A stretch of DNA of 32,000 nt, taken from NCBI GenBank assembly GCA_026387835.1, contig JAPLKZ010000013.1:90001-122000 (forward strand), given 5' to 3'. Every line of letters starts with the position of its first letter. Position 1 is the first letter of the stretch. The position numbers and the translations under genes were made by a program. Origin of the DNA: Candidatus Saganbacteria bacterium (GTDB taxonomy: Bacteria; Margulisbacteria; WOR-1; JAKLHX01). The notes under the pieces were generated by a model. The model was not told the DNA's origin. It did not search any database and worked only from the letters and a program-made list of their open reading frames with translations. Positions 3,478 to 32,000 of this stretch are shown here, one piece after another.

Positions 3478-3588
3478 TACTGTTTTATTACGATATTAAT
3501 TAATCTTCTGTTTGCAAAGATTATCTTTACGATCTCTTTGTTTTCAATGTTCTGTTTGATTTTTTCCGACATGAGGGCTTTTTTTACT
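3478..3588 (-). pseudogene. Relic copy of the leuS 3' terminus
   Basis: The reverse strand reads ..[35 protein letters not shown] (stop = rc of 3478-3480). The genuine LeuRS C-terminus is ..[34 protein letters not shown] at 4417-4524. The nucleotide alignment is collinear over about 105 bp with scattered mismatches. An in-frame stop lies just upstream, at about 3598. Confidence 0.8.
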
Positions 3589-3632
3589 GAAATTCTCCAT
3601 TATTTTAACGATATATAAATAGAGGGCAAAAA

Positions 3633-4415
3633 ATGGGCGAGATCAACAGAACAGAGACTAAACAAAACGTTGCAGCGCAGGCAGGAAAAACAAACGAAAG
3701 AACAATTAACCTGCCCGATGAAAAAAGCAGGAGTTCGATGTCCGGGCCGGTCATCGATGACGGACTGGACAGGTTCGACCGCGACATCTGGAGTAAGGCC
3801 CACGGCTGGGCAAACGGAGCCCCGTTCAATAACGGGTGGAGATCGGACCATGTGGCGTTCGAGAACGGCAGGATGGTTCTGACGCTCGACAACACCGCGA
3901 GTTCAGGAAAACCGTACACTTCCGGTGAATACAGGACAAAAGACTTTTACGGATACGGCACGCTTGAGGCAAGCATCAAAGCGGCTGCGGGCGAAGGCAT
4001 AATGGGGGGGTCATTGTTCTTCTGCACCGGCCCTTACGACAATAACCCGTGGGACGAGATAGACATCGAGATCATCAAAGGGAAAATGCAGGTCAATTAT
4101 ATTACTAACGGTAACGGGAACAACGAAAGAACGATCGAGCTTGGATTTGATCCTTCAAAAGCTTTTCACACGTATAAAATAGAATGGCGGCCTGACATGA
4201 TCATCTGGTCGGTCGACGAAAAAGAGGTGCACAGAGAGAACGGTTCCCGCAGTCCTCTTCCGAAGACCCCCGGAAGGATCATCGCTAATTTGTGGACAGG
4301 TAAAGATGTTGACGGTTGGCTGGGGAAGTTTGAATACAGATCCCCGTTGAGAGCCGAATATGACTGGATAAAATACACGCCTTTTAAAGACAAGACGTCC
4401 GGCTGCAATAAATAG
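3633..4415 (+). CDS. Glycoside hydrolase family 16 (beta-glucanase/laminarinase-like)
   Basis: Contains the GH16 catalytic signature E-x-D-x-x-E as WDEIDIEI, plus typical flanking blocks (TSGEYRTK, HTYKIEWRPDMIIWSVD, ANLW). AGAGGG lies 6 nt upstream of the ATG. No signal peptide is obvious. Confidence 0.85.
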   Translation: MGEINRTETKQNVAAQAGKTNERTINLPDEKSRSSMSGPVIDDGLDRFDRDIWSKAHGWANGAPFNNGWRSDHVAFENGRMVLTLDNTASSGKPYTSGEYRTKDFYGYGTLEASIKAAAGEGIMGGSLFFCTGPYDNNPWDEIDIEIIKGKMQVNYITNGNGNNERTIELGFDPSKAFHTYKIEWRPDMIIWSVDEKEVHRENGSRSPLPKTPGRIIANLWTGKDVDGWLGKFEYRSPLRAEYDWIKYTPFKDKTSGCNK

Positions 4416-4416
4416 T

Positions 4417-6837
4417 TTATTTTACGACTATATTTATCAGTCTTCTGTTTGCGAAGATTATCTTCACGATCTCTTTATCCCCGATATTCTGTTTGATCTT
4501 TTCCAGTGCTAAGGCTTTTTCTCTTGCTTCTTTTTCGCTTATATCAGCCGGAACGGTCATCTTGTCGCGCAGCTTGCCGTTCACCTGAATCGGGATCTCG
4601 ATCTCTGTATCTTTGGCAAGAGTACTGTCAAAAGACGGCCATGCCTGATCAGATATGCTGCCTTTTCCCCCTGCAACACTCCAGAGCTCTTCGGCGATAT
4701 GAGGAGCGAAAGGGGAAAGAAGAAGGATCAGTTTCTGTGCAGCCTCCGGGCTAAGTTCCTGTCCCTGTAAAGTATTTGACAGCTCCATTATCTTTGCGAT
4801 CGCGGTGTTGAACGAGAATTTCTCTATGTCTTCGGTCACGCATTTGATGGTTTTATGGAGTTTTTGGACAGCTTCTTTGTCTGCTGCCGGCAGGACATTT
4901 CCTGCATTCTTGTTTTGCACAAGTTTCCAGATCCTGTTAAGGAACCTGTAGCAGCCTTCCACCCCGGCGTCGCTCCATTCAAGTTCCCTTTCAGGCGGTG
5001 AAGCAAATAATATGAATAGTCTTGCCGTGTCGGCCCCGTATCTTTCGATTATATAGTCAGGGTCTATTACGTTGCCTTTTGACTTGCTCATCTTTGCTCC
5101 GTCTTTTACGACCATGCCTTGAGTCAGAAGATTTTTGAACGGTTCATCTACCGGTACGAGTTTCAGGTCAAACAGGACTTTAGTAAAGAACCGTGAATAG
5201 AGAAGATGCAGTATCGCGTGTTCTATTCCACCGATATATTGATCGACAGGGAACCAGTATTTCAGGTCATCAGAGTTGAAAGGCTTGCCGGTCTCTTTCG
5301 GGTTCACGTACCTGAAGAAATACCATGAGGAGCAGTTGAAAGTGTCCAGAGTGTCCGTTTCTCTTTTTCCCGGTCCGCCGCACTTCGGGCATTTTGTGTT
5401 GACAAAATCTTTGACTTTAGAAAGAGGGGATCCTCCTTCACCTGTGAATTTAACTTCGTACGGAAGTTTAACCGGCAAGTCTTTCTCGGGAACAGGGACT
5501 GCTCCGCATTTTTTGCAATATACAATTGGTATCGGGGCTCCCCAATACCTCTGCCGTGAAATCAGCCAGTCCCGCATCTTGAAGTTGACTTCCCTTTTTC
5601 CGCTGCCATTATCTATAAGCCAGTCGGTTATTGCTTTTATCGCATCGTTGCTTTTTAGCCCGTTGAACCGGTCGGAATTTACCATGATGCCTTCATCAAC
5701 AAAAGCGCATTCCATATCGTTAAAGGGCGCACGACCGTGCGCCCCTACAGGGGCAATTACTTCTTTAATTGGCAGGTTGAATGTTTTTGCGAACTCAAAA
5801 TCTCTCTGATCATGTGCGGGCACCGCCATCACTGCTCCTGTCCCGTACTCCATCAGAACATAATCTGATGTCCATACGGGGATCTTTTCCCCTGTCGCCG
5901 GATTGACCGCGTATGCACCGGTGAACTCCCCTGTCTTTTCCGTGGCTTTTTCGCGTGACGAAGCGGACTCTTTCTTAACGCTATCTATATATGTAAGGAC
6001 GGCTTTTTCCTGCTTTGTCCCTTTTGAAAGCTCTTTTGTGTATGGATGTTCGGGAGCAAGAGTCATATATGTCACCCCGAACAGAGTGTCGGGCCTTGTG
6101 GTGAACACCTCCAACTCTTTGTCCGAGCCGTCGATCTTGAATTTGATGCTCATTCCTTCTGACCTGCCGATCCAGTTGCGCTGCATGATCTTGACGCTGT
6201 CAGGCCAGCCAGCAAGTTTTTCGATGTCATCGAGAAGCCTTTGAGCGTATGCTGTTATTTTGAAGAACCATTGCTCCAGGTCCTTTTCGCCGACAACGGA
6301 CTCACACCTCCAGCATTTGCCGTCCTTGACCTGCTCGTTGGCCAGTACGGTCTCGCATTTAGGGCACCAGTTGACGAGAGATTTCTTCTTGTAGGCGAGC
6401 CCCGCTTCGTAGAACTTGATGAATATCCACTGCGTCCATTTATAATAATCTTCTTTGCTGGTAGTGACCTCCCTGCTCCAGTCATAAGAAAGCCCGAGCC
6501 GCTTGAGCTGGGACTTCATCTGAATTATGCACTTTTCCGTCCAGTCCTTTGGATGCGAATTGTTCTTTATCGCGGCGTTCTCAGCGGGCATGCCGAAAGC
6601 ATCCCAGCCGATCGGGTGAAGCACGTTGAACCCTTTCATCTTTTTATAGCGCGCGATGATGTCGCCGATGGCATAATTGCGCACGTGGCCCATGTGGATC
6701 GCGCCGGAAGGATAGGGGAACATAACAAGGTCGTAAAATTTAGGTTTCCCTGACTTGTTCGGCACCTCGAATGATCTGTTCTTTTCCCAGAAGGACTGCC
6801 ATCTGGATTCGATATCTTTGTGGTTATAATCGGGCAT
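4417..6837 (-). CDS. leuS: Leucyl-tRNA synthetase
   Basis: 806 aa with class I motifs HMGHVRNY (HIGH) and KMSKSKGN (KMSKS) and a CP1 editing region. It is full length. Confidence 0.97.
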
Positions 6838-9558: not shown

Positions 9559-10263
9559 TCAAACGGTCCCGGATAGATAAGCTTTCCTTGTCTTTTCAGG
9601 GAACTTTTCTATCGCGTACCTCAGCATGGTTCGAGGCATCTTCTTGTAATGCCCCTTTAAAAAATCCTCTTCTGTCTTTTGTGAGCATCTTTTTCCCGTC
9701 TCACGAAGCATCCAGCCGACGGCTTTGTGTATGAGGTCGTGCCCGTCATTTAAAAGGACCTTTGCGACCTTCAGGGTTTCTTTCGGATCGCCTCTTTTAA
9801 TATAGTTAAAGGTCGATAATATCGAGATCCTTCTTTCCCAGAGAGAGCTTGATCGCGCAAATTTATACAGGAGGCTTTTATCCTTGTCAGAAAGATATTC
9901 ACCTACTATCTGTTCCGCAGTAAGGTCTATCAGGTCCCAGTTGTTGATGAACCTCGTGTTATTAATGTATATATTAAATATCTTCTGCTTTTCGGCCTTG
10001 TCTGCCTTGCTATACTTCAAAACCAATATCAAAAGAGTGGTTAACCTTTCCTCATGATATTTGGAATGAAGAAGCTTTATGCAGTCGGGCAACGTGATAT
10101 CTCTGAACTTTTTTACAATGTTTCTGACATCCGGCACAACGATACCAAGGAAAACGTCTCCTTCCCCGTACTGCCCGGGCCCGGTCTTGAAGAACCCTGC
10201 CAGTATCTTTGCCTTTTGCGGGGAAGCGCAGTCGCGAAGGTCTTTTTTCAGTTTTGAAAGCAT
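9559..10263 (-). CDS. DNA alkylation repair protein (AlkC/AlkD-like HEAT-repeat family)
   Basis: 234 aa from ATG (rc of 10261-10263): MLSKLKKDLRDCASPQKAKILAGFFKTGPGQYGEGDVFLGI..WERRISILSTF..HDLIHKAVGWMLRE, a typical family pattern. The longer track ORF (to 10635) runs through a tRNA gene and was trimmed. Confidence 0.8.
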   Translation of the reverse strand: MLSKLKKDLRDCASPQKAKILAGFFKTGPGQYGEGDVFLGIVVPDVRNIVKKFRDITLPDCIKLLHSKYHEERLTTLLILVLKYSKADKAEKQKIFNIYINNTRFINNWDLIDLTAEQIVGEYLSDKDKSLLYKFARSSSLWERRISILSTFNYIKRGDPKETLKVAKVLLNDGHDLIHKAVGWMLRETGKRCSQKTEEDFLKGHYKKMPRTMLRYAIEKFPEKTRKAYLSGTV

Positions 10264-10283
10264 GATGAAATTATTGTTAAAAT

Positions 10284-10370
10284 CGGAAGGAGCAGGATTT
10301 GAACCTGCGGTGCGCTTGCACGCACAGTAGTTTTCAAGACTACCGCCATAAACCACTCGGCCATCCTTCC
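10284..10370 (-). tRNA. tRNA-Ser (anticodon UGA)
   Basis: 87 nt on the reverse strand: GGAAGGA acceptor pairs with TCCTTCC plus discriminator G; anticodon arm GTAGT-CTTGAAA-ACTAC; long variable arm TGTGCGTGCAAGCGCACCGC; T arm GCAGG-TTCAAAT-CCTGC. No encoded CCA. Confidence 0.93.
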
Positions 10371-10379
10371 ATGTCCCGC

Positions 10380-10406
10380 TCGCTTGCCCCGAGCCTGTCG
10401 AGGGGG
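10380..10406 (-). repeat. GC-rich motif copy 2, in the tRNA-Ser 5' leader
   Basis: The reverse strand reads CCCCCTCGACAGGCTCGGGGCAAGCGA. This matches dxr 318-345 except for the central 3-4 nt (AGG versus TTCG). It ends 9 nt before the mature tRNA-Ser 5' end. Confidence 0.8.
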
Positions 10407-10423
10407 CCACCTCTCCGTAAAAT

Positions 10424-10432
10424 ATTGTATCA
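10424..10432 (-). promoter_or_regulatory. Candidate extended -10 box for tRNA-Ser (and downstream alkylation-repair gene)
   Basis: The reverse strand reads TGATACAAT. This predicts a leader of roughly 45-50 nt containing the GC-rich motif. Confidence 0.4.
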
Positions 10433-10694
10433 CGGCTGTAGGTGCGTAGGATATCAGCACGACCTCCGGCAAATGACCAAATAATCCCGTTCCCGCGACA
10501 TTTTTTGGAAAAATCAAAATTGAGTGAAATTTCAAAAAATACCTGTCGAGAAGAATATGGCAAGAAATAACAGGCATGTAAAAAATACATCGCCGGTGAA
10601 CAAAGAAAAAACTGAAAGGAGGACTGGAAATACAAAAAAATTGAAGTTTCATAAATGTCCGGGGGCGAAAATATTTAAAGTAAGGAGATAACAG

Positions 10695-15213: not shown

Positions 15214-15300
15214 CACGAATTGTCTCACGAATGAGTTTATCGCGAATAACGCCAATAAGAATTTTGCTAATTGTCGCGAATTATCACTAATCACACGAAT
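15214..15300 (+). repeat. Array of (C/G)ACGAAT-type heptamers upstream of the GxxExxY gene
   Basis: CACGAAT at 15214, 15226 and 15294; CGCGAAT at 15241 and 15275. Confidence 0.8.
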
Positions 15301-15346: not shown

Positions 15347-15727
15347 ATGGGCGCAAAACTTATCCATGCCGAATTGAGCTATAAGTTGGTCGGGGTTCTT
15401 TACAAAGTATATAACGAGCTTGGCGGCGGGTATCAGGAAAAAATATATCAATCTGCGGTCAGAAAAGAGTTGAAAAAAAGCGGGATAAATTTTACCGAAC
15501 AATTGGGAATAGATCTGTTATATGACGACAAAAAAATAGGCAGATATTTTCTTGATTTTGTCATTGAGAACAAAATCGTGCTGGAGCTCAAGGTTGTCCC
15601 AAGATTTTCACCCCGCGACATAATGCAGGTGCTCGGTTATCTTAAACAGACCGGACTGGAGCTCGGCATTCTTGCCAGCATGAACAGAAATGGCATTATT
15701 ATGAAACGTATACTGAAAGGAAATTAG
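15347..15727 (+). CDS. GxxExxY protein (PD-(D/E)XK nuclease superfamily)
   Basis: 126 aa with GYQEKIY (GxxExxY) and DFVIENKIVLELKV (D..ExK). Strong RBS AGGAGG upstream. Confidence 0.85.
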   Translation: MGAKLIHAELSYKLVGVLYKVYNELGGGYQEKIYQSAVRKELKKSGINFTEQLGIDLLYDDKKIGRYFLDFVIENKIVLELKVVPRFSPRDIMQVLGYLKQTGLELGILASMNRNGIIMKRILKGN

Positions 15728-15731
15728 CGTT

Positions 15732-15809
15732 ATTCGTGTAAATTCGAGTTAATAAGTGAGATCTCTATTCGTGTGATTCGTGATACAGACAATTCGTGAA
15801 AGATTCGTG
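15732..15809 (+). repeat. Array of ATTCGTG heptamers downstream of the GxxExxY gene (reverse complement of the upstream array)
   Basis: ATTCGTG at 15732, 15767, 15776, 15792 and 15803; variant ATTCGAG at 15742. Confidence 0.8.
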
Positions 15810-18211: not shown

Positions 18212-18226
18212 TATTTTTGTATACCT

Positions 18227-18299
18227 GAGCCACTAGCTCATCTGGTAGAGCACTTGCCTTTTAAGCAAGTGGTGCCGCGTTCGAGTCGCGGGTGGCTCA
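18227..18299 (+). tRNA. tRNA-Lys (anticodon UUU)
   Basis: 73 nt; acceptor GAGCCAC/GTGGCTC; anticodon arm CTTGC-CTTTTAA-GCAAG; T loop GTTCGAGTC. Confidence 0.93.
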
Positions 18300-18305
18300 A
18301 ATTAT

Positions 18306-18381
18306 GGGCCCGTGGTGTAGCCTGGTCTAACACGCATGCCTGTCACGCATGAGATCGAGGGTTCAAATCCCTTCGGGCCCG
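18306..18381 (+). tRNA. tRNA-Asp (anticodon GUC)
   Basis: 76 nt; acceptor GGGCCCG/CGGGCCC; anticodon arm CATGC-CTGTCAC-GCATG; T loop GGTTCAAATCC. Confidence 0.92.
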
Positions 18382-18387
18382 TTTGTT

Positions 18388-18460
18388 GGCGGGTTAGCTC
18401 AGTTGGTAGAGCAGTAGCCTGAAAAGCTATGTGTCCTCAGTTCAATTCTGAGACCCGCCA
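18388..18460 (+). tRNA. tRNA-Phe (anticodon GAA)
   Basis: 73 nt; acceptor GGCGGGT/ACCCGCC; positions 34-36 are GAA in loop CTGAAAA. Confidence 0.92.
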
Positions 18461-18480
18461 AATTATCTTTTTTGCTGTGG

Positions 18481-18512
18481 GCTTGCGCCGAGCGAGTGAA
18501 GCGAGTCGAGGC
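18481..18512 (-). repeat. GC-rich motif copy 3 (diverged), in the tRNA-Phe/tRNA-Thr spacer
   Basis: The reverse strand reads ..GCCTCGACTCGCTTCACTCGCTCGGCGCAAGC. It shares the CCTCGAC ... CTCGG(G/C)GCAAGC frame with 318-345 and 10380-10406. Confidence 0.6.
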
Positions 18513-18585
18513 GCCGACGTAGCTCAGCTGGTAGAGCAGCTGTTTCGTAAACAGCAGGTCGTCAGTTCAATCCTGACCGTCGGCT
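18513..18585 (+). tRNA. tRNA-Thr (anticodon CGU)
   Basis: 73 nt; acceptor GCCGACG/CGTCGGC; loop TTCGTAA. Confidence 0.92.
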
Positions 18586-18598
18586 TTAATAAGTTTTA

Positions 18599-18607
18599 TG
18601 TTAGAAT
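18599..18607 (+). promoter_or_regulatory. Candidate extended -10 box for the receiver-domain gene
   Basis: TGTTAGAAT lies 22 nt before the ATG at 18630, and a GAAAGGAAG RBS lies between them. Confidence 0.4.
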
Positions 18608-18629
18608 ATGCTATCTGAAAGGAAGAAAT

Positions 18630-19004
18630 ATGTCAAAAAAAATACTTGTGATCGATGATGAAAATGATGTGGTGGAGATACTCAAGACGATCCTTGAGCA
18701 TGAAAAATATGAAGTGATAAGCAGTTACGGCGGTGAAGACGGGCTTAAAAAAGCGATAGCATCTAAGCCCGACCTCATAATCACGGACATAATGATGCCG
18801 GGGATGGACGGTTTCGAGTTCGTGCAAAAGCTTAAAGAGAACATGGAGACGTTCAATATCCCCGTGATCATGCTGACCGCAAAGGACCAGGGAGTTGACA
18901 GGGAAAAAGGCCTGGCGCTCGGCGTGATAGCTTACATAGTAAAACTGTTCGATCTTGAAGAGCTTATATCCACGGTAAAAGACGCAGTCGAAAAGAAAAA
19001 ATGA
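18630..19004 (+). CDS. Single-domain response regulator (CheY-like receiver)
   Basis: 124 aa: KILVIDDE, DLIITDIMMPGMDGFEF (phospho-acceptor Asp), PVIMLTA, and a conserved Lys in YIVKLF. The track ORF start at 18429 runs through tRNA genes and was trimmed. Confidence 0.9.
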   Translation: MSKKILVIDDENDVVEILKTILEHEKYEVISSYGGEDGLKKAIASKPDLIITDIMMPGMDGFEFVQKLKENMETFNIPVIMLTAKDQGVDREKGLALGVIAYIVKLFDLEELISTVKDAVEKKK

Positions 19005-19016
19005 ATGAGCCGAAGC

Positions 19017-19089
19017 GCTGGCGTAGCTCAGCTGGTAGAGCAGCGGTTTTGTAAACCGCAGGTCGTCAGTTCAATCCTGACCGCCAGCT
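19017..19089 (+). tRNA. tRNA-Thr (anticodon UGU)
   Basis: 73 nt; acceptor GCTGGCG/CGCCAGC; loop TTTGTAA; followed by TTTTTT. Confidence 0.92.
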
Positions 19090-26263: not shown

Positions 26264-27675
26264 CGGGCAGTCCTTCTGCTCAGAGACGCGGTTATCGCCG
26301 AAAGGTGCTGAATGTCACGGTTCCTGTTGGGATCAAAGCTGATCTTCTGGAGAGATCTCAGCAGTTCAAGCTTGTATATCGCGGTATCAAGAGCCAGTTT
26401 CTCAAGCCCCGTCTCGATCCATTTTATCCCTTCTTTAGGTATATCGTAGCCCAGCGTGTTGGATTTTTTAGTTAGTCTTGATATTTCTTTTGAGGCGACA
26501 TCGAATTCGCGGGACGAGGTCGTAAGGATCCTGTTAAGATGGGACTGTTTGAGCATCGATATTATCTTAAGCCAGGCTATGCGGCGCGACTGCGTCCTGA
26601 TGTTGTCGATATTTTCTTTTTCCATTCCCCTGTCCTTCAGGGTGTTTTCGAGCCTCCGGACCGTTACTCTTTCAGGAACCGCTTTAAAAATGTTGTCTTC
26701 GAGGAAAAGTTTTGTATGAGAAGTGCGGAGGTCGCCGACAACTACTGAGATGTCTTTCATCTGCGGCAGGTCGAAAAGATGAAAATACATATCGGCATTT
26801 TCCAGCCGGTTGATATGCACATTATCGCCCAGGAACATTTTCATCATCGAATCGATGTCAAGATTGAGATGTTCCGCGAGCTGGGCGAGGTCCGAGATAT
26901 CAAGATTGTTCAGGATGACGGCCCTTTCGCTGAGCGAGATCGACTCTTTTTCGAGCGCGTTCAGGATATCGATGATAGATCTCGGATTTTTGGCATTGAT
27001 TATCCAGTCTGACATGTGCAGGGTGCCGCTTGCGGAGCTGAAAAATTTATCTTTGATCAGTTTAAGGAATCTTTCTTTGATCATATCGAGGGTCTTTTGG
27101 TCGAGGTATTCCAGGTCGATCCCGATCAATCCGCCTTTCATAAGCGCTTCTTTCACGGCTGCCAGGCGGATCGTAACATTGTCCAGCTCGTCCTTAGGCC
27201 GCTGCATTACCATCTTTGCGGTAAGCGCCACATAATCTTTAAGAAGGGTCTCCTCGATGATCTTCGCTTTTTCCGTAAAGCTGATGTATTCCGCCGCGGC
27301 GGAAAGGCCTCCCGTTTCTCCGGGTGCTTTCGTTTCGCTCTCCTCCTCTTTTTTCTCCCCTTCCTTTTTCGGCCTTTTTTTCTCGGCCTTCTTGACCACG
27401 GAATCAAGCCTGCGCTCCGAGATCTTTGCTAATTCCTGTTGGTAAAACATTTCTTCTTCATGGGGTTTTCTCTGGCGTTTTGAGTTCACCTCGGAGACGC
27501 CGTCCGAAGAGATCATCTCTATCAGCAGGTCTTTGAATTTGGCCTTCGGATCGTTGTCCGGAGGCACCGCGTTCGGTTCGGTCCTCGCTTTCCTGTCAAA
27601 TCCCGTGGAAAGTATACCGCCTGTCCCCGCGGCCGCGGCCTGCTGGTTGGAAGAAGGAAGCCCCTCTATTGGCAT
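26260..27675 (-). CDS. Hypothetical protein (471 aa) with a Lys/Glu-rich N-terminal third
   Basis: Long uninterrupted ORF with coding-like composition. No motif recognised. Its stop overlaps the queE stop by 3 nt (convergent). Confidence 0.6.
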   Translation of the reverse strand: MPIEGLPSSNQQAAAAGTGGILSTGFDRKARTEPNAVPPDNDPKAKFKDLLIEMISSDGVSEVNSKRQRKPHEEEMFYQQELAKISERRLDSVVKKAEKKRPKKEGEKKEEESETKAPGETGGLSAAAEYISFTEKAKIIEETLLKDYVALTAKMVMQRPKDELDNVTIRLAAVKEALMKGGLIGIDLEYLDQKTLDMIKERFLKLIKDKFFSSASGTLHMSDWIINAKNPRSIIDILNALEKESISLSERAVILNNLDISDLAQLAEHLNLDIDSMMKMFLGDNVHINRLENADMYFHLFDLPQMKDISVVVGDLRTSHTKLFLEDNIFKAVPERVTVRRLENTLKDRGMEKENIDNIRTQSRRIAWLKIISMLKQSHLNRILTTSSREFDVASKEISRLTKKSNTLGYDIPKEGIKWIETGLEKLALDTAIYKLELLRSLQKISFDPNRNRDIQHLSAITASLSRRTAR

Positions 27676-27760
27676 AAAAGATCCCCGTTTCGAAAATTAT
27701 ACACCATCAGGTGGAAATAGGGTATAGGGCGAAGAAATGACTAATTAATGGATTATATAA

Positions 27761-27773
27761 GCAGCAAGCAGTC
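27761..27773 (+). repeat. Junction motif copy A (GCAGCAAGCAGTC core)
   Basis: An exact 13-mer shared with 29657-29669 and 30397-30409. It is followed by a GC-rich imperfect palindrome to about 27800. Confidence 0.8.
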
Positions 27774-27949
27774 AGCCCGCCTGCAACGCTTTGCGTAGCA
27801 ATGCGGGCAGGCAGAACGCGGTACGTGCCGAGAGCATGTCAAGCATCCAAACATTATACCCCCCCCTCCCCACATAATAAAATTCAGTGAAATTCCCAAT
27901 ATTTCCATTCGATACATATATAGATGAAAATACCGAAAGGAGAAAAGTG

Positions 27950-28612
27950 ATGAATAATATTAGAGGGATCATGCGTGGATGGACAAACGAAGGAAGACCG
28001 GCAACATGGGCGAATGTAAGAAATGCAATAGCGAATCAGACCGCGTGTTCTGTGGTTGTATCATCAGGATTGGGGCCGATCTTATCGCTTACAAGGCGGA
28101 GGGTGGAAGAAGGCCCCGTACAAAAACTTGCGCGGACTGCAACCCCTGCTTTTGATGTGGCAAAGTTCATGGAAGCCCACAATTTTATCGATGTTCCCGA
28201 AAGACCTTTTAGAATAATGGCAGACGAGCTTTCGGTAGGGCTATTCAACCGATTTGTTAAAAGCACACAATACGAAATTATAGGCCATAATGCGGATTCT
28301 TTAAAAGGAGTTCTTGCCGGAACAGATCGACGCAGTATAGCAACATATTTAAGCTGGAATGACGGCACGGCTTATGCTAAATGGCTGAGCGCAGTAACTG
28401 GCAAAAGCATTATGCTTCCAACAGAGAAGAAATGGTTAGACGCCGTTGACAAAGTCCGAGATCAACTATCTGGGAACAATTGGGAATGGACGAAAACCCC
28501 ATATTCCAGCAACGCCTTTGTTCTCCATCACCTGAACAATTCGCTCCGTTTCAACTGCATCCCTGGGAATCGTTTTAACTTCAATGCGGTCCGTCTTGTT
28601 GAGGACAAATAA
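27950..28612 (+). CDS. DGR target-type protein with FGE-sulfatase / C-type-lectin fold
   Basis: 220 aa from ATG 27950 (AAAGGAG RBS). Contains FRIMADELSVGLFNRFV, SWNDGTAYAKWLS, MLPTEKKW and GNNWEWT, then the Asn-rich tail NAFVLHHLNNSLRFNCIPGNRFNFNAVRLVEDK. Confidence 0.8.
   Translation: MNNIRGIMRGWTNEGRPATWANVRNAIANQTACSVVVSSGLGPILSLTRRRVEEGPVQKLARTATPAFDVAKFMEAHNFIDVPERPFRIMADELSVGLFNRFVKSTQYEIIGHNADSLKGVLAGTDRRSIATYLSWNDGTAYAKWLSAVTGKSIMLPTEKKWLDAVDKVRDQLSGNNWEWTKTPYSSNAFVLHHLNNSLRFNCIPGNRFNFNAVRLVEDK
28475..28609 (+). other. Candidate DGR variable region (VR)
   Basis: These are the last ~45 codons of the target gene, starting at the GNNWEW block, with many AAC/AAT codons. Position and composition fit FGE-type VRs. 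No matching TR was found in the window, so the bounds are approximate. Confidence 0.5.
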
Positions 28613-28682
28613 ATTATCCTTTGCTCTTTTATTCTTTTACTCTTTGAGTGGGATGGGGTGGCCAGGAGTTTGAGGGAAATAA

Positions 28683-29021
28683 ATGGAAGGTCCAAAAGTT
28701 ATAACCTTGGCCTATGATTTCATAAAATGGGCCATTCCTCATATTGTGAAGTTTCCAAGAAATCAAAGATACACGCTTGGGGAACGGGTTGAAAACAAAC
28801 TATTCTTCCTTCTGGAACTTCTCATTGAAGCTCAGTATTCTAAAGACAAAGCTAATGTGCTTAAGAAAGCGAACATGGAAATTGAGCAGACACGATATTT
28901 ATTCCGTTTATGCCATGACTTGCGGCTGATCAATTTAAAAACCTACGAATTGTCTTCAAGGCAGTTGATGGGAATTGGGGCGCAGGTCGGGGGATGGATC
29001 AAGCAGCAAAATACCAAATGA
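28683..29021 (+). CDS. avd: Four-helix-bundle protein, DGR accessory variability determinant (Avd) type
   Basis: 112 aa, helical, with FPRNQRYTLGERVENKLFFLLELLIEA, typical of the four-helix-bundle / 23S-IVS protein family. Its stop overlaps the RT start (ATGA). Confidence 0.8.
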   Translation: MEGPKVITLAYDFIKWAIPHIVKFPRNQRYTLGERVENKLFFLLELLIEAQYSKDKANVLKKANMEIEQTRYLFRLCHDLRLINLKTYELSSRQLMGIGAQVGGWIKQQNTK

Positions 29022-29650
29022 AGCGCCACGGTTATTTATTCGATAAGATCACTTCTTTTGAAAATCTCTTAAAAGCCTCACGAAAAGCTCAGAGGGGTAA
29101 ACGCTTCAAGAATTCCACGGCCGAATTTAACTTAAAAATAGAGTCCGAACTGCTGGAACTGCAAAGAGAACTGCAAGAGGCAACTTATCGAATAGGCAGC
29201 TATAAACAATTCTACATTTATGACCCAAAGAAACGGTTAATCAACGCCTTGTCTTACAGAGACAGGGTTGCTCAGCATGCTTTATGCAATGTTATCGAGC
29301 CGATATTCGATAACGGATTAATTTATGATAGTTACGCCTGCAGGAAAGATAAAGGCAGCCATAGGGCTGTCAGCCGGTTTGCGATGTATTGCCGCAAGAA
29401 TAAATATGCCTTGAAGTGCGACATTAAAAGCTATTTTGCCTCAATAGATCACGGCCTCTTGTTTGACATGATCATGAAAAAAATTAAAGACCCGGATGTA
29501 ATACAGCTGATTAACTTGATCCTTGATTCAACCCCTTCTCCCGGAATTCCAATCGGGAATTTGGCCAGCCAAATATTCGCCAATCTTTATCTTAACGGAC
29601 TTGACCATTATTTAAAGCAACCTTCGAGATTGAAATCGACCCCCGCTTAG
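29018..29650 (+). pseudogene. DGR-type reverse transcriptase, 3'-truncated before the YxDD motif
   Basis: MKRHGYLFDKI.., KKRLINALSYRDRVAQHAL, SYACRKDKGSHRAV, LKCDIKSYFASIDH, IPIGNLASQIFANLYLNGLDHYLKQ (DGR IGxxxSQ signature). RT similarity ends at about 29620, and the frame stops at TAG 29648-29650 inside a junction repeat. The catalytic Y-x-D-D and thumb are absent. Confidence 0.85.
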
Positions 29651-29686
29651 CAGTCCGCAGCAAGCAGTCTGCAAGCTGCGGTCCAA
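29647..29686 (+). repeat. Junction motif copy B
   Basis: TTAGCAGTCCGCAGCAAGCAGTCTGCAAGCTGCGGTCCAA contains the 13-mer core (29657-29669) and a CCGCAGC...GCTGCGG inverted repeat. Confidence 0.8.
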
Positions 29687-29691
29687 CTCCC

Positions 29692-30291
29692 TCAAACAAA
29701 CCCAAACTTCCCCTTCGGTTTGCTTTCGTCTTTCAATATCTTGTTGATCGCGCTGAAGAGACTGATGATGTCCTGGTCGTGCCGCCCGATCTTGTGCTCT
29801 ATCTCTGACAGCTTCTGGATCAACTCTTTGTTGAATGTAAGCAACTGCCTAATTTTTACGAATGCTCTCATTATGGCTATATTGACCTGGATGGCCCGTT
29901 TGCTTGTAAGTACAGAGGAAAGCATGGCTATTCCTTGTCCTGTAAATGCGTATGGAAGGTATTTGATATGTCGTCCGCGCATGGAATTTGGGTCATGCTT
30001 GTGGTCGAATTTCTTTAAGGTTGCAAAATGCAACCTTAAACAATCCAATTCTTCCCATGTGAGTTGGAACATAAAATCTTTGGGAAATCTTGAAATATTT
30101 CTATTTACTTGCTGTTTTAATCTTTTGATGCTTTCCTCATATAATGGAGCCAGGTCGGCATCCAACATGACTTTCTGGCCTCTTAAAAGGAAGATACTGG
30201 ACTCTATTGATTCGGCGGAAATAATCATACTGTTGGATTTTTCAACATCTTGGTCTACGGATGCCTTTTTGTTACGCACACTTTTTGGCAT
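29692..30291 (-). CDS. ORF6N-domain (KilA-N-related) DNA-binding protein
   Basis: IESSIFLLRGQKVMLDADLAPLYEESIKRLKQQVNRNISRFPKDFMFQLTWEE matches the ORF6N domain pattern. GAGAGGA RBS upstream. Confidence 0.85.
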   Translation of the reverse strand: MPKSVRNKKASVDQDVEKSNSMIISAESIESSIFLLRGQKVMLDADLAPLYEESIKRLKQQVNRNISRFPKDFMFQLTWEELDCLRLHFATLKKFDHKHDPNSMRGRHIKYLPYAFTGQGIAMLSSVLTSKRAIQVNIAIMRAFVKIRQLLTFNKELIQKLSEIEHKIGRHDQDIISLFSAINKILKDESKPKGKFGFV

Positions 30292-30393
30292 AAATATCCT
30301 CTCTTTCCCGGATCAAGGCTTAAAGCCAGCAGCTTACAAATGGTCAATGAGCAATTTATCCGCCACGACAAAGGCTCTATCGCTAGGGTTCTA

Positions 30394-30426
30394 TTAGCAG
30401 CAAGCAGTCCGCAGACTGCGGAACTT
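30394..30426 (+). repeat. Junction motif copy C
   Basis: TTAGCAGCAAGCAGTCCGCAGACTGCGGAACTTG contains the 13-mer core (30397-30409) and a TCCGCAG-A-CTGCGGA palindrome. Confidence 0.8.
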
Positions 30427-30453
30427 GTTTCATCATAATTATTTTTTTCACCG

Positions 30454-30462
30454 TGATATAAT
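30454..30462 (+). promoter_or_regulatory. Candidate extended -10 box for carB
   Basis: TGATATAAT lies 8 nt before the carB ATG at 30471. No Shine-Dalgarno. Confidence 0.45.
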
Positions 30463-30470
30463 TAGTTGAA

Positions 30471-32000
30471 ATGCCGAAAAGAAACGACATAAAAAAAATA
30501 ATGCTCATCGGTTCCGGGCCGATCGTCATCGGCCAGGCGTGCGAGTTCGATTATTCGGGAACGCAGGCGTGCAAGGCCTTAAAAGAAGAAGGATACAAGA
30601 TCATCCTTGTGAACAGCAACCCGGCGACAATAATGACGGACCCGGAGTTCGCTGACAGGACCTATATCGAACCGATAACACCGGAGATAGTTGAAAAAAT
30701 AATAGCGATAGAAAGACCGGATGCTCTGCTTCCGACGATCGGGGGACAGACGGCCTTGAACACGACCGTGGCTTTAGGTGATTCAGGCGTCTTTAAAAAG
30801 TACGGAGTCGAACTTATAGGCGCCAGCCTCGACTCTATAAAAAAAGCGGAGGACAGGCATCTTTTCAAGGAGGCCATGAAAAACATCGGCCTTAACATGC
30901 CGAAAAGCTATTCTGTCTACAGTTCCGAAGAAGCGGTCAAGATTATCGGTGACATAGGGTTCCCGGCGATAATCAGGCCGGCTTTCACCCTGGGAGGCAC
31001 GGGCGGGGGGATCGCGTACAATATCGAAGAATTGAAAGAAAAAGTAGCTCAGGGTGTATTTCTGAGCAGGATCGGACAGGTCCTGATCGAGGAATCGGTC
31101 ATAGGATGGAAGGAATACGAGCTTGAGGTGATGCGCGACCTGAAGGATAATGTAGTCATAATCTGCTCGATAGAGAACTTCGATCCTATGGGCATCCACA
31201 CGGGAGACAGCATCACGGTCGCGCCCGCCCAGACGCTGACCGACAAGGAGTACCAAAGATTAAGGAATTATTCCATAGCCGTGATGAGGGAGATCGGAGT
31301 TGATACCGGCGGTTCTAACATCCAGTTCGCCGTAAATCCGGAGAACGGCAGGGTAGTAATAATAGAGATGAACCCGCGCGTCTCCAGAAGTTCGGCGCTC
31401 GCTTCAAAAGCGACAGGATTCCCGATAGCAAAGATCGCCGCCAAGCTTGCCGTGGGGTACACTTTGGACGAGATCCCTAACGACATCACAAAAAAGACCC
31501 CAGCCTCGTTCGAACCGACGATAGATTATGTAGTCACCAAGATCCCGCGGTTCGCTTTCGAGAAATTTCCCGGAGCCGACCAGACGCTCAATATACAGAT
31601 GAAATCAGTCGGAGAGGCAATGGCGATCGGAAGGACTTTTAAGGAATCGCTCCAGAAAGCTCTCAGATCGATCGAGACAGGCGCCTGCGGGCTTGATGAT
31701 ATCAAAGATGAAAAAGAAAAAAGCGTAAGCGGACACAGCGAAGATGAACAGTCGCTGCAATTATCGATCTATGACAGGCCTAAGACAGAGACCGGAGATA
31801 TACCGCTTGAAAAAATAAAAGAAAAGATCAGTATCCCCAATCCGGAAAGGCTGTTCTATATCAAAAAAGCATTTCAATCCGGCATTTCACTGGAAGACGT
31901 CTGCAAATTATCAAAGATCGACAAATGGTTCCTGGACAATATTTTGCAGATCGTCTCGATGGAGGAAAAGATCAAGAACGGGAAGTCCTCTGTAAAGATG
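30471..32000 (+). CDS. carB: Carbamoyl-phosphate synthase large subunit (3' end outside window)
   Basis: Not in the ORF track because no stop falls in the window. My translation from ATG 30471 is open to nt 32000: [107 protein letters not shown]. Confidence 0.95.

Follow-up and report, generated by a model that had tools for sequence, protein, structure and literature searches.

A probable remnant of a diversity-generating retroelement beside a repeated core-plus-hairpin site in Candidatus Saganbacteria

Introduction

The prototype diversity-generating retroelement (DGR), that of the Bordetella phage BPP-1 (mtd-avd-TR-brt), combines a target protein of the C-type-lectin fold carrying a variable region (VR) at its C-terminus with the protein Avd and a reverse transcriptase (RT) bearing the IGxxxSQ block. 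All of these features are shared by a locus in a metagenome-assembled genome (MAG) of Candidatus Saganbacteria (assembly GCA_026387835.1, contig JAPLKZ010000013.1, positions 90,001 to 122,000 of the forward strand). This whole stretch of 32,000 nt is referred to below as the window, and all coordinates are counted from its first nucleotide. In BPP-1, the template repeat (TR) is located between avd and brt, whereas in the clade to which the window locus belongs it follows the RT gene; in the window, the RT gene is truncated and the TR is absent. Here, we describe this locus, which is very probably a non-functional remnant of a DGR clade common in Saganbacteria and Margulisiibacteriota.

The closest systems are the intact DGRs of Saganbacteria and Margulisiibacteriota represented by loci L005 and L004, which have the same gene order as the window, with the target gene followed by avd (112 aa) and an RT gene with an overlapping start. 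Their RTs share 83-84% identity with the RT of the window, and their VRs share with it the scaffold FVLxxL...AVRLVED. Unlike the window locus, they encode a 334-aa RT with a YMDD motif and carry a TR beginning 1-2 nt after the RT stop codon, and the window lacks both. An intact element of this kind consists of a target gene with the VR at its 3' end, avd, the RT gene and a TR directly after the RT stop codon. Its RT and Avd copy the TR RNA into cDNA, introducing errors at adenines, and this cDNA takes the place of the VR.

The surroundings of the locus invite comparison with another kind of system, the tandem accretion of integrative elements and of att-flanked cis-mobilizable elements (CIMEs) without an integrase of their own, as in the CIME/ICESt1 elements of Streptococcus thermophilus.

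Inactivated DGRs are common. Wu et al. (2018, Nucleic Acids Research 46:11, PMC5758913) discarded more than half of their candidate DGRs for premature stop codons, truncations or poor TR-VR matches, and warned against inferring function from such loci. The window locus is one such case; unlike those, its breakpoint could be placed within approximately 12 nt, beside a repeated core-plus-hairpin site. No paper linking DGRs with Saganbacteria was found in the literature searched.

Results and Discussion

The reverse transcriptase gene ends before its catalytic motif

The RT stump (29018-29650, forward strand) represents the 5' two-thirds of a DGR RT gene and contains IPIGNLASQIFANLYL as well as the motif-4 block IPIGNLASQ. 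This block conforms to the [ILV]GxxxSQ signature of DGR RTs, and the nearest relatives of the protein have validated TR/VR pairs, placing it in the DGR clade of RTs. The original prediction, made from the sequence alone, had recognized the RT by its IGxxxSQ block, which proved correct, and had given the product a length of 211 aa, which is corrected here to 210 aa. The nearest relatives are proteins of 331-338 aa from metagenomes of Saganbacteria and Margulisiibacteriota with 84% identity over 94% of the query, and the only RT above 84% identity in a collection of 5.8 billion proteins was the same truncated protein.

Homology to these relatives covers residues 1-201 of the stump and then ends abruptly. 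The relatives read ...GLDHYLKE-TVKCKHYIRYMDDLIVF... and continue ...LKETVKCKHYIRYMDD past the break point, whereas the window reads ...GLDHYLKQ-PSRLKSTPA-stop, with a foreign tail of nine codons after residue 201 and a stop codon within the junction and the adjoining repeat site (site B, described below). At the nucleotide level, homology to the intact locus L005 extends from 28586 to 29625 (82.6% identity), and the break falls between 29622 and 29634. In the relatives of approximately 334 aa, the YMDD motif starts ten codons past this point, and the window RT is therefore missing about 133 residues including YMDD and the thumb. Thus, a catalytically complete RT (with motif 5 YxDD, motifs 6-7 and the thumb) is not encoded at this locus. 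These results agree with the earlier expectation that RT similarity would stop right after LDHYLKQ at about 29620 with YxDD and the thumb missing. The frame was also said to die in a junction repeat, which holds for the position of the stop codon, and the repeat can now be identified further as one of three exact copies of a 13-mer.

Given its open reading frame and clean stop, the 210-aa product might instead be a short but complete RT-like protein serving its own function, an alternative to which almost no credence can be given. The protein is collinear with residues 1-201 of the 334-aa RTs at 84% identity before it diverges, matches only positions 8-143 of the 205 positions of the Pfam profile RVT_1 (2.2e-9, with positions 144-205 unmatched), and has no catalytic aspartates. 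Against its best structural match (PDB 8ub7_A, 2.8e-47), a 328-aa RT which we take to be the bRT of BPP-1, residues 2-200 cover chain residues 3-202, which likewise speaks against a complete non-DGR RT-like domain, the finding named beforehand as a refutation of the DGR assignment. No family of approximately 210-aa proteins ending at the same point was seen among the relatives, the short matches being contig-end fragments.

With a MAG as the source and a short repeat at the junction, the assembly could have produced a chimera there, but this explanation is extremely unlikely. Logan contigs from runs ERR15302170-ERR15302224 are 100% identical to the window including the junction and the VR, and four contigs from separate runs span the junction at this identity (L001, 28373-31663; L002, 27783-30548; L015, 29297-30482; L016, 29573-30548). 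The junction (29600-29700) is thus genuine in independent assemblies of several runs. A chimera is also unlikely because the repeat core is only 13 nt long, shorter than typical assembly k-mers.

The template repeat was lost together with the catalytic half

Comparison with intact relatives shows where the TR of this element would have been. In locus L005 (ENA ERZ27248036 k141_6160057, encoding RT P0002), the VR occupies positions 1287-1369 and the TR positions 2783-2866, just past the RT stop codon at 2781. The two repeats differ at 18 of the 29 TR adenines and at one of the 59 other positions (p = 2e-10). Locus L004 (Logan SRR22388063, RT P0005) has the same layout. Because the TR directly follows the RT stop codon in these relatives, a single break after RT codon 201 is enough to account for the loss of both the TR and the catalytic RT half. 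In the window, the RT gene breaks off after this codon, and nothing of the element downstream of it, the TR included, is left.

The window contains no recognizable TR. No 60-mer in the 32 kb matched the VR with six or fewer non-A mismatches, and an ungapped, A-tolerant search of both strands with the 88-nt VR gave at best 66/88, within the range of 63-67 obtained with shuffled VRs. Accordingly, no TR/VR pair differing almost only at TR adenines is present within the 32 kb, and the earlier remark, made by eye, that the VR has no second copy in this stretch was borne out. Without the catalytic RT half and the TR, no cDNA can be made locally, and the VR would be a fixed sequence. The earlier suggestion of a DGR inactivated by deletion or insertion, with its VR frozen, is therefore supported by an RT without about 133 of its approximately 334 residues, by the absence of a TR from the window and by a junction that recurs at full identity in independent Logan assemblies.

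The other suggestion made at that time, that the missing RT half and TR lie elsewhere in the genome, found no support, given that no RT above 84% identity other than the truncated one was present in the collection of 5.8 billion proteins and no matching orphan C-terminal fragment was found. A search for an orphan RT C-terminal half using the C-terminus of P0002 as the query returned few candidates, and these were only contig-end fragments of other RTs. Those overlapping residues 150-201 differ from the window sequence in this region, and P0128, the sole candidate from Logan alone, was rejected as it comes from the unrelated run SRR12594517.

A related possibility is that the target is remote, with an intact DGR elsewhere in the genome providing a compatible TR and an initiation of mutagenic homology (IMH) sequence and diversifying the VR in trans. 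Remote targets are well known for DGRs (Wu et al., 2018, PMC5758913), both the target and Avd reading frames are intact, and DGRs of the same clade are abundant in Saganbacteria and Margulisiibacteriota. Nevertheless, we consider this improbable. The only recorded RT above 84% identity is the truncated form itself, and the TRs of the relatives with 83-84% identity differ from the VR at 16-18 of the 59 non-A positions, so only an unsampled element far more closely related could supply a compatible TR. In addition, all contigs running through the VR are identical.

The target protein and Avd are intact

The target gene lies on the forward strand and ends at 28612, with possible starts at 27887 (GTG) and 27950 (ATG; 220 aa), the latter being the start in the NCBI annotation. 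Pfam assigns it to the FGE-sulfatase family (1.4e-9), the match being confined to residues 103-186 of the 241-aa reading frame. The N-terminal part of about 70 residues is disordered, and residues from about 70 to 220 adopt an FGE/EgtB-type C-type-lectin fold in an AlphaFold2 model with a predicted local distance difference test score of 82.5 overall and above 90 for residues 70-220. Foldseek searches with this model gave EgtB, SenA, FGE and PvdO as top matches (probability 1.0). Likewise, a profile of the target family matched SUMF2 (4.5e-7) and chains of FGE, EgtB and PvdO in the PDB, in three collinear in-register segments, the last of which covers GNxWEWT...VLR. Thus, the profile search that could have failed to place the target C-terminus in the FGE fold did place it there.

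Approximately 700 relatives of the target were found with phmmer among 1.84 billion cluster representatives, mostly proteins of 170-260 aa whose C-termini are in register with that of the target. Their consensus, ...LSGxNWTWTET......FVLRxLxxxxRxxxxPxxRxxxxAVRLVED, is conserved save for scattered positions that correspond to AAY codons in the TRs of the relatives. The former VR (28519-28606, forward strand) gives gap-free alignments with the TRs of both L005 and L004 and corresponds to the last 30 or so codons at the 3' end of the target gene, encoding FVLHHLNNSLRFNCIPGNRFNFNAVRLVED. The target therefore carries its VR at the C-terminal end of an FGE-type C-type-lectin fold, as is typical for DGRs. 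This confirms the fold and the location of the VR proposed before, and homology to the TR/VR pairs of the relatives replaces the proposed VR boundaries of 28475-28609 with those given here. At positions where the two TRs agree, the VR mismatches them at 13 of 28 adenines and at 9 of 44 other positions (one-sided Fisher p=0.02), a pattern consistent with past adenine mutagenesis; the test is weak because the TR of this element is lost and the lineages have diverged by about 17%.

The N-terminal two-thirds of the target show no relation at the DNA level to the targets of the intact relatives. The closest DGR relative by Avd (91% identity) is locus L026 (136-1662, groundwater metagenome SRR1534154), which has an IS4-type DDE transposase gene directly upstream of its target gene. 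The target of L026 shares with that of the window just the last 150 nt or so, the VR end, suggesting that the N-terminal part of the target has been swapped between close DGRs.

The avd gene (28683-29021, forward strand) is intact and separated from the target gene by a 70-nt spacer. It encodes a 112-aa protein that matches the Pfam family bAvd (6.8e-18) and, with 103.4 bits against a cutoff of 80, the NCBIfam equivalog NF033474, and it adjoins the RT gene as in other DGRs. The RT start codon (ATG, 29018) overlaps the avd stop codon (TGA) as ATGA, as had been noticed for the 112-aa Avd-type protein. From the list of open reading frames and the sequence, the target gene, avd and the RT stump have the same orientation, and the description of three co-oriented and tightly packed reading frames was accurate in all its features.

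The proteins of the locus are identical to MCX5750005.1-MCX5750008.1 of a Candidatus Saganbacteria MAG at NCBI, with the target protein corresponding to MCX5750005.1 and Avd to MCX5750006.1. The Prokaryotic Genome Annotation Pipeline (PGAP) names them SUMF1/EgtB/PvdO family enzyme, diversity-generating retroelement protein Avd, reverse transcriptase domain-containing protein and ORF6N domain-containing protein. As the RT clade, Avd and the target fold are those of a DGR but the complete RT and the TR/VR pair are not present, the locus is best filed as a DGR remnant rather than a DGR. The target and Avd reading frames are still intact, which suggests either that the loss is recent or that the target remains of use as a binding protein with a fixed sequence.

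Several observations weigh against the conclusion that the element is dead. The scan for a TR and an RT covers 32 kb of a contig of 165,873 nt, and the MAG has other contigs, so that a second DGR or a relocated TR may exist in the rest of the genome. The adenine bias of the VR mismatches is only modest. All Logan contigs through the VR are identical, which fits a frozen VR but is given little weight, since minor VR variants can be hidden in consensus contigs even when these agree between runs. Finally, the intact loci L005, L006 and L007, compared as a control for live diversification, also show one VR in three assemblies that probably stem from the same sample, which makes the comparison uninformative.

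Three identical core sites delimit two small modules

The 13-mer GCAGCAAGCAGTC is present in exactly three copies in the 32 kb, at 27761, 29657 and 30397, each adjoining a GC-rich hairpin. Site A (27750-27813, forward strand) contains the core at 27761-27773, followed by an imperfect hairpin of approximately 34-38 nt (27775-27808). The stretch comprising the junction and site B (29626-29691) starts with 31 nt of unknown origin followed by the core (29657-29669), which is embedded in a hairpin (29655-29681) with a minus-strand fold z of -4.07. Site C (30386-30422, forward strand) contains the core at 30397-30409 and a short hairpin at 30408-30422. The direct repeat formed by sites B and C scores 35 against a shuffle maximum of 26.

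Sites A and C mark the left and right edges of a 2.6-kb islet located between a 471-aa gene of unknown function and carB (starting at 30471), with site C 50 nt upstream of carB. The three cores border two modules, the DGR stump (27774-29656, 1.9 kb) and a convergent ORF6N gene (0.7 kb), and site B separates the RT stump from the ORF6N gene where their ends converge. The islet has a GC content of 0.429 against 0.475 for the rest of the window, the lowest value in any 2.6-kb segment elsewhere being 0.437.

The arms next to the cores have a hybrid character. The left arm of site C is identical to that of site A at 8 of 11 positions, and its right arm to that of site B at 9 of 12 positions, compared to 2/11 (left) and 3/12 (right) in the cross comparison. 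The modules are thus bordered by direct repeats with an identical core and hybrid arms, the features expected of att-type sites. Site C carries an A-like left arm and a B-like right arm, as expected if A and B were reciprocal products of recombination. The islet therefore resembles accretion of the CIME/ICESt1 type, of which it is a candidate member as judged by its sequence, in having three direct repeats with an identical core that bracket two modules, hybrid arms, low GC content and no recombinase of its own. It differs from this type in that no integrase, empty site or excised form was found in the window and the collections searched, and its modules are tiny (1.9 and 0.7 kb).

The arrangement of the arms raises the possibility, which we hold tentatively and as the minority view, that the ORF6N gene lay between two direct repeats and the stump entered the left one at its core. 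In such an event, a C-like chromosomal site would recombine with a site on a DNA segment already carrying the truncated DGR, and the truncation would be older than the insertion or made in the same event. The model predicts an empty site reading ...GGATTATATAA-GCAGCAAGCAGTC-TGCAAGCTGCGG... and a circle junction reading ...CTTAGCAGTCC-GCAGCAAGCAGTC-AGCCCGCCTGCAACGC.... The alternative to insertion is a deletion in situ next to a pre-existing site.

Two observations argue for the insertion model. The ORF6N homologue of locus L019, an unrelated contig, is flanked by a 49-nt direct repeat (score 61 against a null maximum of 28), and copies of a 101-nt segment, the duplicated leuS 3' end, lie on both sides of a GH16 gene in the window (3633-4415); together they make an ORF6N gene flanked by two repeats plausible as the starting state. 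The GH16 gene encodes a glycosyl hydrolase, and the two copies of its flanking direct repeat (3483-3583 and 4420-4520) are 78% identical. The copy at 4420-4520 is the true 3' end of leuS (minus strand) and that at 3483-3583 a displaced duplicate, the apparent signature of an insertion at the leuS 3' end that brought its own replacement end.

Other results weigh against insertion. Pfam scans of the larger reading frames of the window detected no integrase, transposase or recombinase, and no empty site or further copy of the core site was found in the collections searched. Specifically, the core-plus-hairpin pattern GCAGCAAGCAGTCNGCANNCTGCGG had no matches in the GTDB representative genomes, to which the source genome does not belong, and the 471-aa flanking protein, used to look for an empty site, had no relatives there. 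A pattern for A/C-type sites gave three matches in JGI metagenomes, located in unrelated coding sequence without a hairpin and attributable to chance. A 15-nt core pattern gave 63 single matches in IMG/VR, approximately the number expected by chance, none of which extends into the arms. The stump also has no terminal inverted repeats, and a transposon with a 13-bp target duplication was rejected on this ground. Integron attC core sequences are likewise missing from sites A, B and C. Neither strand has a RYYYAAC...GTTRRRY pair at any of the three sites, GTT precedes AAC on both strands at site C, and IntI is absent, so that an integron array or a cluster of attC sites lacking integron-integrase (CALIN) was discarded. 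Nor do the three sites appear to be fragments of an ORF6N gene, as the flanking repeat is in L019, since tblastn returned noise only. An Rfam scan of 27000-31000 at E<=1 gave no match.

The position of the break also bears on the idea that the DGR is split, a rearrangement at the 13-bp cores having relocated the TR and the 3' half of the RT gene to a different core site in the genome, perhaps reversibly. The break is 31 nt from a repeated core site, and Logan contigs repeatedly break in hairpin A, a hint of more than one sequence context. This scenario is nonetheless highly unlikely. The break is not at the core itself, the search for the C-terminal half gave only fragments that differ over residues 150-201 or come from unrelated samples, and the core pattern has no matches beyond chance in genome, metagenome and viral collections. 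As to hairpin A, contigs from at least 10 Logan runs end exactly at 27804 (from the left) or start exactly at 27783 (rightward). At k=31, such ends are expected of sequence occurring in more than one context, either because it is a dispersed repeat or because the islet border is structurally polymorphic.

In a more far-reaching proposal, Saganbacteria would possess a site-specific system, so far undescribed, that cut the DGR and transported it as a 1.9-kb cassette, so that the element did not simply decay. This system would use the 13-bp core and GC-rich hairpins and build small islets around ORF6N genes carrying a conserved covarying palindrome (see below). We regard this as a long shot.

A conserved palindrome within ORF6N genes

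The ORF6N-domain gene (29692-30291, minus strand) encodes a 199-aa protein with an exact match in the Saganbacteria MAG (MCX5750008.1). It belongs to the Pfam ORF6N family (PF10543), scoring 101.2 bits against a cutoff of 27.8 (E = 4e-29). Genes of this family were found to hold a conserved DNA palindrome within their coding sequence, with arms of 11-15 bp and a centre of 1-3 nt, located at 30011-30043 in the window. It coincides with the codons for the family motif (N/S)LRSQ(I/F)(V/A)TS and was present in all 33 genes examined (24 distinct sequences), namely those of the window, L018, L019, L021, L027 and L028, together with viral loci from L029-L108 where the motif could be placed. Its length in 24 of the 33 genes exceeded that in almost every one of 300 synonymous-codon shuffles (p<=0.013).

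The two arms change together even when the encoded amino acids change, as in LRLHFATLK (window), LISQNAMSS and EVITNCDNL, and 11 of 14 pairs covary. Over segments that had been centred on the best palindrome, 86.9% of the cells were paired, compared to 71% in shuffles (0/500) and 21-44% when the segments were slid. The scarcity of G-T pairs argues for a site in DNA and not for an RNA hairpin. No mention of this palindrome was found in the searched literature naming ORF6N.

Locus L019 (JGI Ga0247854_1000018) shows the palindrome in a further setting. The two copies of the direct repeat flanking its ORF6N gene (2867-2915 and 3563-3610) are 86% identical, and the 3' half of the repeat is a copy of the palindrome internal to ORF6N, reads NLRSQIATSK and is approximately 96% identical to an internal segment of the ORF6N gene of L028. 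Loci L019, L027 and L028 have common flanks, with a beta-lactamase gene on one side of ORF6N and a 400-aa gene on the other, and different genes are inserted beside ORF6N in each of them, so that this locus looks like a variable hotspot.

Other features of the window

The remaining genes of the window are housekeeping genes, including dxr, thrS, leuS, a tRNA cluster, holA, a gene for a penicillin-binding protein, scpAB, a queE-like gene and carB. The tRNA cluster lies within 18226-19089 and has the order Lys-Asp-Phe-Thr(cgt) followed, after a 430-nt gap, by Thr(tgt), the two tRNA-Thr genes with their flanks being 88% identical over 90 nt. A tRNA-Ser gene (10283-10371) is located in the N-terminal extension of the listed reading frame 9559-10635, and the real start of this frame is therefore placed downstream of the tRNA. 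A gene for a PD-(D/E)XK nuclease (PDDEXK_3, 126 aa, 15347-15727) lies between 19-nt inverted repeats with 95% complementarity (15282-15300 and 15767-15785, TATCACTAATCACACGAAT / ATTCGTGTGATTCGTGATA) and may represent another small self-contained module.

Implications

The locus is ordinary in kind and its novelty is low, as inactivated DGRs are common and its parts had already been annotated by PGAP. It adds one more inactivated DGR and warns against counting annotations of Avd plus an RT domain as working DGRs, while its fixed VR snapshot could be compared with live relatives. The genomic context is a more useful lead than the DGR, with the break located at a core-plus-hairpin site that recurs in three identical copies bordering two tiny modules, and this context and the ORF6N palindrome are the parts deserving a further look. 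The modules bordered by core sites and the duplication flanking the GH16 gene hint at an undescribed route by which these bacteria, whose genomes are small, would take up single genes at short specific sites. If true, such a route would matter more than the DGR itself.

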